A stretch of 64,000 nt of DNA from Escherichia phage Turkey5. Shown piece after piece: positions 53,618 to 54,730 of the stretch (its first letter is position 1; each line of letters opens with the position of its first letter). Below the pieces are notes generated by a model. The model did not search any database. It was given only the letters and a program-made list of their open reading frames with translations, and was not told where the DNA came from. The stretch is from sequence record PQ471516.1. One strand, written 5' to 3'. The position numbers and the translations under genes are program-made.

Positions 53618-54730
53618 ATGAAAAAATATCTCGTGGGTGGATTCGTCCGCGACCGACTACTGGGCTTACGTGCTAAAGACAAAGATTATGTCATTGTCAG
53701 TGCGTCTGAATCTGATATTAAGTACTTGAAAAGTATTGGGTACAAACAAGTCGGTATTGATTTCCCTGTATTCTTGAGTCCAGAGGGAAATGAATATGCA
53801 TTAGCCAGGACTGAACGTAAAGTCGGTGTAGGCTACAATGGCTTTGAAGTTAATACTAAAGGTGTAACCTTAGAAGAAGACTTATATCGCCGTGACCTCA
53901 CCATCAATGCTATTGCATACGATCCAGTACTGCAAATTCACATCGACCCATACGGTGGGAAAGATGATATTAAGAATAAAGTACTGCGTCACGTTTCAGA
54001 GCATTTCAAAGAAGACCCATTACGTGTTCTTCGTCTTGCACGCTTTGCAACACGATATAATGACTTTACAATTCACGAAAGTACTGTTACAATGTGCACT
54101 GAAATGGTTAGTACTGGTGAGTTGAATCATCTTGTACCAGACCGTGTGTATGTTGAATTTGAAAAAGCATTCTCTGAAGAGAAACCTGCCAAGTTCCTGA
54201 AAACACTGGCTAATTTCGGCTATTATGAAAAAGCATTTACTAAAACACTAACCCGTAAGGTATTAGAATTGGTTGATAATATTTCAGATAATTGTACAGA
54301 AGCATATAAGCCATATTTCATTTGGAGTGCACTTCTCGAAACAGAAGAAGTAAATAAAGACTCAGTACTGAACGAATCAATTAAAATGCCCGTTAAGTAC
54401 GTGAAGTTTAGCAATTATGTAAAACGATTCCGTGATGATATCAAGACATTCCGTAAGAAAACACCTGAAGAGATGGGTGCGTTGTTACTGGAAATGAACA
54501 TTCGAAATAACGGTGGGGAAGAATTCCTGTACAAAGTGCTGGAGTACTTTATTCTTCGTCGTGAAATCGACCTTGAACTTGAAGATTTGATTATTAAGGT
54601 GTATGATCGTTACACCGATACTGTATTACCTGATATTGAAGAAATGGTTAAAGACGGTTCTCTGGACAAGAAAGATATTCGTGACTTTGTACAAGGTTTG
54701 CGTATTACTGAAATCCAGAAAATGTTCTGA
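53618..54730 (+). CDS. cca: tRNA nucleotidyltransferase (CCA-adding enzyme)/poly(A) polymerase family
   Basis: GGFVRDRLLG ... DKDY and RRDLTINAIA class II nucleotidyltransferase motifs. Confidence 0.8.
   Translation: MKKYLVGGFVRDRLLGLRAKDKDYVIVSASESDIKYLKSIGYKQVGIDFPVFLSPEGNEYALARTERKVGVGYNGFEVNTKGVTLEEDLYRRDLTINAIAYDPVLQIHIDPYGGKDDIKNKVLRHVSEHFKEDPLRVLRLARFATRYNDFTIHESTVTMCTEMVSTGELNHLVPDRVYVEFEKAFSEEKPAKFLKTLANFGYYEKAFTKTLTRKVLELVDNISDNCTEAYKPYFIWSALLETEEVNKDSVLNESIKMPVKYVKFSNYVKRFRDDIKTFRKKTPEEMGALLLEMNIRNNGGEEFLYKVLEYFILRREIDLELEDLIIKVYDRYTDTVLPDIEEMVKDGSLDKKDIRDFVQGLRITEIQKMF

Follow-up and report, generated by a model that had tools for sequence, protein, structure and literature searches.

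CCA-adding enzymes of jumbo phages have already been described (Iyer et al., 2021; PMC7824862). RaK2-like phages (Asteriusvirus, Alcyoneusvirus, GAP32, Eneladusvirus and XaC1) carry a 'tRNA nucleotidyltransferase' catalogued as PHROG 2244, whose representatives are orthologues 48-98% identical to the protein considered here and have the same two Pfam domains. A literature search found no experimental characterization of any phage CCA-adding enzyme. The E. coli enzyme, Cca (b3056), includes an HD phosphohydrolase domain with H...HD...D metal ligands. Phage T4 has a repair pathway composed of PseT (Pnkp) and RnlA; it encodes no cca gene of its own and relies on the host enzyme (PMC11143913). Here we describe a cca gene within a 64,000 nt stretch of the genome of Escherichia phage Turkey5 (PQ471516.1), referred to below as the window. 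The gene belongs to a phage gene family that is already known, and it has been annotated before.

An earlier note, made from the sequence alone, had proposed a phage-encoded CCA-adding enzyme at positions 53618-54730 (plus strand). This ORF was borne out: it begins with ATG, comprises 370 codons followed by a stop codon (included in the coordinates) and encodes a 370 aa class II tRNA nucleotidyltransferase of the CCA-adding type. The protein, termed phage Cca, matches the Pfam families PolyA_pol (head; 6.8e-19) and PolyA_pol_RNAbd (4.5e-08), and matches PHROG 2244 over its full length (6.3e-113). Residues 1-202 match the NCBIfam model for E. coli-type Cca (NF008137; 8.3e-82), with a score of 275.1 bits that lies below the curated cut-off of 451 and covers only profile positions 1-202 of 409. 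Its best sequence matches in the PDB are bacterial class II CCA-adding enzymes. Judged by these scores, the match to class II nucleotidyltransferases (Pol beta superfamily; PF01743 + PF12627) is far beyond chance, and together with the motifs described below it supports the identity given in the note.

The cca region is 98.9% identical at the nucleotide level to Escherichia phage vB_EcoM_JNE01 (OR670491.1; Asteriusvirus; 355,583 bp), and the first 20 kb of the window are colinear with JNE01 at 96.4% nucleotide identity. Relative to JNE01, window coordinates are shifted by 18,132 at position 1, a difference that rises to 20,185 by 53 kb and implies about 2 kb of indels between the two across positions 1-53000. 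Approximately 40 other RaK2-like jumbo phages match the cca region at roughly 80%. The JNE01 orthologue shares 99.2% amino acid identity with phage Cca and is already annotated as 'CCA tRNA nucleotidyltransferase'. Full-length homologues of ~370 aa that are 48-82% identical occur in Asteriusvirus, Klebsiella phage phiKp_21 and its relatives, Cronobacter GAP32 and Xanthomonas XaC1, as well as in Erwinia, Serratia and Salmonella Eneladusvirus, and an HD domain was found in none of them. These matches place phage cca in the PHROG 2244 family, and nothing material appears to set the gene apart. No second class II nucleotidyltransferase was found in the window or in the first 349 kb of JNE01.

Upstream of cca, a Shine-Dalgarno-like AAGGA read from the sequence (53607-53611, plus strand) lies 6 nt before the ATG. 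A weak candidate for a sigma-70-like promoter (TTGAAA-18-TATAAT with TG, 11/12; 53546-53575, plus strand) is located 43 nt upstream of the start codon. The number of promoter-like sites in the cca region (29) shows no excess over shuffled sequences (25.5 +/- 5.8), so this candidate serves only as a lead. In fEgEco12, three extra small genes are located directly upstream of cca.

The neighbours of cca encode a lysozyme, an HPF-like protein, a Nudix protein, a glutaredoxin and a macro-like 'phosphatase', and no functional link of cca to any of these five was seen. The HPF-like gene (52137-52463, plus strand) encodes a ribosome hibernation protein resembling YfiA/HPF (Pfam Ribosomal_S30AE, 4e-11) and is followed by a strong terminator-like hairpin at 52472-52498; the homologue in fEgEco12 is annotated 'putative sigma 54'. 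The macro-like protein (56065-56541, plus strand; 158 aa) has a weak, below cut-off match to the Macro domain (16.4 bits) and a match to PHROG 335 'phosphatase' (1e-43). Two other ORFs of the window have hydrolase-type labels. That at 5648-6088 (plus strand; 146 aa) gives a borderline match to Pfam PTH2, peptidyl-tRNA hydrolase (22.3 bits against a cut-off of 23), and matches PHROG 3668 'hydrolase' (1.3e-41). That at 56885-57262 (plus strand) has PHROG 14786 as its sole PHROG match (4.3e-46), a group whose function is not known, and its counterpart in fEgEco12 is labelled a putative 'aminoacyl-tRNA hydrolase'.

A +1 frame change may divide the Nudix gene 3′ of cca (54807-55239, plus strand) in two. 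At 54807-54896 there is a short ORF starting with ATG that reads MRYSCGIIFYRDGQILVGHTT... and is conserved in JNE01 and fEgEco12; if a single base following GHTT is skipped, this ORF continues into GQQHWDLPKGKTEGDE of the one annotated at 54838-55239. The match of the fused protein to Pfam NUDIX starts at profile position 7 (51.0 bits), compared with position 18 (47.6 bits) for the unfused protein. This gain is small and could be a coincidence.

We scored the conservation of the catalytic motifs of phage Cca in 25 aligned homologues, which share 39-98% identity with it; all features described here are on the plus strand. Motif A (GGFVRDRLLGLRAKDKD, residues 7-23; 53636-53686) contains the catalytic residues D21 and D23, and G7, G8, R11, D12, D21 and D23 are invariant. 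Motif B (RRDLTINA, residues 91-98; 53888-53911) has R91, R92, D93, T95 and N97 invariant; these two motifs had been quoted in the earlier note and are present as described. Invariant residues also occur in motif C (DPYGGKDD, residues 110-117; 53945-53968), namely D110, P111, G114 and D117, and in motif E (RVYVEFEK, residues 176-183; 54143-54166), namely R176, E180 and K183. Motif D (EDPLRVLRLARF, residues 132-143; 54011-54046), which corresponds to the EDxxR nucleotide-selecting protein template, has E132, D133, P134, R136, R139, R142 and F143 invariant. Most of the motif residues, including those named for motifs A, B and D, are also kept in an alignment with E. coli Cca and poly(A) polymerase I (PAP I). 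Loss of the catalytic aspartates, which the note had named as one observation that would speak against its proposal, was not seen, since both residues of the DxD pair are invariant among the 25 homologues.

Residues 1-201 of E. coli Cca, which span the head and neck domains, are 54% identical to the same residues of phage Cca, and the cores of motifs B and D are identical in the two proteins. BLASTP detects no similarity of phage Cca to the E. coli K-12 enzyme beyond residue 201. The class II CCA-adding enzymes of T. maritima (3H37) and B. stearothermophilus (1MIV) are 24-25% identical to phage Cca, and their body and tail regions are unrelated to it at the sequence level. An AlphaFold model of phage Cca (mean pLDDT 92.8, pTM 0.85) predicts a full head-neck-body-tail architecture. 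The block with the lowest pLDDT (72, residues 71-80) falls in the flexible loop between motifs A and B. This loop region (ALARTERKVGVGYNGF, residues 61-76; 53798-53845) aligns without gaps to E. coli Cca, and the loop has the same length as in that enzyme, with no deletion in residues 59-80.

These features bear on whether phage Cca might have an altered specificity, acting as a poly(A) polymerase, an A-only or a CC-only adding enzyme on tRNAs or on other RNAs. The C-terminal regions of class II enzymes reportedly influence whether CCA, A or poly(A) is added (Betat et al., 2004; Tretbar et al., 2011), and the flexible loop is reported to be shortened in CC-adding enzymes (Neuenfeldt et al., 2008). 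However, the loop of phage Cca is of full length and its C-terminal domain retains recognizable homology to that of Cca (see below). Phage Cca also has neither the N-terminal extension nor the basic C-terminal tail of poly(A) polymerases. Among the NCBIfam models, the E. coli-type Cca model scores 275 bits, compared with 98.8 and 49.9 bits for the two PcnB models and 58.4 bits for an A-adding model. We consider a change of specificity very unlikely on these grounds. As an identity for the protein, poly(A) polymerase I (PcnB) was tried and rejected: the two PcnB scores compare with cut-offs of 305.65 (TIGR01942) and 702 (NF008634), respectively, and identity to PAP I is 24%.

The C-terminal half of the protein distinguishes it from E. 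coli Cca. Residues 203-370 (54224-54727, plus strand) form an all-helical body/tail domain that is a diverged homologue of the C-terminal half of the E. coli protein. In a profile-profile comparison with hhalign that used the C-terminal part alone, the phage family aligned to the C-terminal half of E. coli-type Cca with a probability of 94-95% (E = 3-6e-8), and the gaps fell exactly at the two E. coli segments that supply HD ligands, HPEIDTGIHT and LCHDLGK. The HD domain (PF01966) is absent from phage Cca by Pfam search, alignment, hhalign and inspection of residues. Phage Cca, which is 42 residues shorter than the E. coli enzyme, lacks an 'HD' dipeptide and has no histidine beyond residue 171. 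The gapped ligand segments and these missing residues indicate that the phosphohydrolase site of phage Cca is gone. The enzyme should therefore be without 2′,3′-cyclic phosphodiesterase, 2′-nucleotidase and phosphatase activities. Loss of this site makes the labels 'multifunctional CCA protein' and '2′,3′-cyclic phosphodiesterase' unjustified for the PHROG 2244 family, and labels such as 'multifunctional CCA/repair protein' in some phage records are over-annotation.

When residues 203-370 were searched against 1.84 billion cluster representatives, only nine proteins were matched. Six of these share the ~370 aa architecture, another two are short fragments and the last is a weak match to a 2936 aa protein, so that no informative relative outside the family was found among the nine. 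This distribution indicates that the phage version of the C-terminal domain is narrowly distributed and lineage-specific.

Loss of the HD motif, coupled with NCBIfam scores that fall below the equivalog cut-offs, might be taken to mean that cca is a decaying or non-functional copy of a host gene. The reading frame, however, is intact and preceded by a good ribosome-binding site, and several phage genera share the same catalytic residues without variation. The GC content of cca (38%) matches that of the phage (36%), whereas E. coli cca has 56%. Furthermore, comparison with the fEgEco12 orthologue (80% identical) gives a dN/dS of 0.09 overall; the ratio is 0.06 in residues 1-202 and 0.13 in residues 203-370, all approximate values because dS is near saturation. 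By these ratios, both halves of phage Cca are under purifying selection, and we regard decay as extremely improbable.

We conclude that phage Cca is most likely the active class II CCA-adding enzyme, devoid of an HD domain, of a jumbo phage of the genus Asteriusvirus. The sequence, the motifs, the predicted fold, the purifying selection and the CCA-less tRNA genes in relatives were obtained directly; what the enzyme makes and which substrates it uses in vivo are inferred. By homology, phage Cca most likely carries out the standard class II, template-independent addition of C, C and A. In such a mechanism, the head domain would form a two-metal active site with D21 and D23, and residues E132, D133 and R136 of motif D would provide the protein template by which CTP is chosen twice and ATP thereafter. 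The acceptor/T-arm of the tRNA would be held by the helical body/tail domain. Substrates would be tRNAs that end at the discriminator base, at -C or at -CC, each of which would be extended to a full CCA tail. A role in adding or restoring the CCA end of tRNAs during infection is, in our judgement, highly probable.

The earlier note had presented the enzyme as accompanied by no tRNA genes in the window. This observation holds for the 64 kb, in which ARAGORN found no tRNA genes and Rfam gave no match of any kind at gathering score. The puzzle that it implied is, however, an effect of window size. A search of the rest of the genome, as the note had advised, was run on JNE01, the closest complete genome (96-99% nucleotide identity), from which the tRNA evidence comes. 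ARAGORN found eight tRNA genes in the whole JNE01 genome, at 246,282-253,813, approximately 172 kb from cca. The set consists of Leu-UAA, Gly-UCC, Ser-UGA, a tRNA with anticodon ACU called as Ser, two Met-CAU and two Thr-UGU. CCA follows the discriminator base in three of the eight. In the other five (both Ser, the short Met and both Thr), CAA or CAC follows instead; these have no encoded CCA and thus need post-transcriptional CCA addition. Three of the eight calls are odd: in the 249165-249354 region, the tRNA called Ser with anticodon ACU is 92 nt long and a 90 nt 'Met-CAU' has a long variable arm, and a 73 nt Met-CAU at 249360-249432 has an acceptor stem that pairs at only four of seven positions.

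CCA-less tRNA genes are also present in other phages that carry a cca orthologue, such as 121Q (3 of 6), Klebsiella RCIP0023 (2 of 6) and, in the stretch fetched, Erwinia pEa_SNUABM_12 (4 of 12). Of 80 IMG/VR loci that have a Cca homologue, 20 have tRNA genes no more than 10 kb away; these tRNA genes number 108, of which 80 encode CCA and 28 do not. A strict association of phage cca with CCA-less tRNA genes was rejected on these counts. In three loci on unrelated viral contigs (L076, L079 and L092), a tRNA with a CUA anticodon is encoded no more than 10 kb from the Cca homologue; these are of the amber-suppressor type and are called 'Pyl' by ARAGORN.

The first role that phage Cca would have is the completion of the phage's own CCA-less tRNAs (five of eight in JNE01) after 3′ trimming by host nucleases. 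The tRNA genes of E. coli all encode CCA, and the host Cca thus serves for repair and has a modest capacity. For a phage with CCA-less tRNA genes, further CCA addition would be of direct use. However, T4 completes CCA-less tRNAs by means of the host enzyme, and a Cca is already present in the host, so the phage could in principle do without its own copy. Moreover, the abundance of CCA-encoding tRNA genes near Cca homologues means that phage cca does not track CCA-less tRNAs in general, which argues against maturation being the whole story. A second role would be to maintain intact 3′ ends across the tRNA pool.

The note had suggested that cca, together with a polynucleotide kinase gene at the window start, gives the phage a tRNA-repair capacity. 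The kinase gene is real: the ORF at 9-953 (plus strand) encodes a Pnkp (5′-kinase/3′-phosphatase) with a P-loop kinase domain and a PNKP HAD phosphatase domain (Pfam AAA_33; HAD_PNKP, 1.3e-44). The protein is 34% identical to T4 PseT, and it is conserved and annotated as polynucleotide kinase in relatives. The note had also advised a search for RNA ligase, which was positive in JNE01, where a homologue of T4 RnlA (Rnl1; 37% identity, 4.6e-60) is encoded at 15,903-17,045. This gene, annotated merely as 'hypothetical protein', lies 1.1 kb upstream of that for Pnkp and would fall just outside the 5′ end of the window, within which no RNA ligase was found. No Rnl2 homologue was found in the window or in the first 349 kb of JNE01. 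The presence of both Pnkp and an Rnl1 homologue in JNE01 points to a T4-like tRNA repair module in that relative. The suggested repair capacity is thus supported in part. However, cca is ~53 kb from the gene for Pnkp, with no operon link to it, and its product lacks the HD site to which E. coli Cca owes its end-healing activity; a role of phage Cca against anticodon or CCA nucleases would be possible only. Whereas T4 has no cca, the Turkey5 window carries one as a separate, unlinked gene.

The presence of these repair genes raises the alternative that phage Cca is dedicated to counter-defence, mainly rebuilding CCA tails cut by nucleases or toxins of the host or of competitors and thereby complementing Pnkp and Rnl1. 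Jumbo-phage CCA-adding enzymes have been placed among RNA-repair nucleotidyltransferases (Iyer et al., 2021; PMC7824862), and nucleases that cut CCA tails exist, as exemplified by the immune nuclease Cas12a3 (PMC12851939). The IMG/VR counts favour the same alternative, in that, for many phages with a Cca gene, the majority of the tRNA genes include the CCA and maturation alone is insufficient to account for the gene family. In opposition, cca lies far from Pnkp among unrelated neighbours, and the phosphohydrolase site that would heal 2′,3′-cyclic or 3′-phosphate ends has been lost. In addition, no defence that targets 3′ ends is known to restrict Asteriusvirus-type phages, and cuts by Cas12a3 reach up to the discriminator base (PMC12851939), which a CCA enzyme could not restore. 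We therefore judge it rather unlikely that counter-defence is the role driving selection. It is in this driving role only that the proposal differs from general CCA addition during infection, with which it overlaps and is non-exclusive. Maturation of the phage's own CCA-less tRNAs explains cca at least as well as an anti-nuclease role.

For an active CCA-adding enzyme of this family, the significance of the gene beyond its correct annotation is small. The occurrence of CCA-less phage tRNA genes in a host whose tRNA genes all encode CCA offers a simple rationale for a phage-borne cca. A more specific and decidedly speculative proposal, which we hold to be doubtful, is that the HD-less enzyme with its lineage-specific C-terminus rebuilds tails clipped by Cas12a3-like nucleases or acceptor-end toxins, or preferentially services phage tRNAs. 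If this were true, either activity would make phage translation independent of the host's 3′-end maintenance. Now that immunity that cleaves tRNA tails has been described, phage Cca enzymes are obvious and testable candidates for counter-defence.
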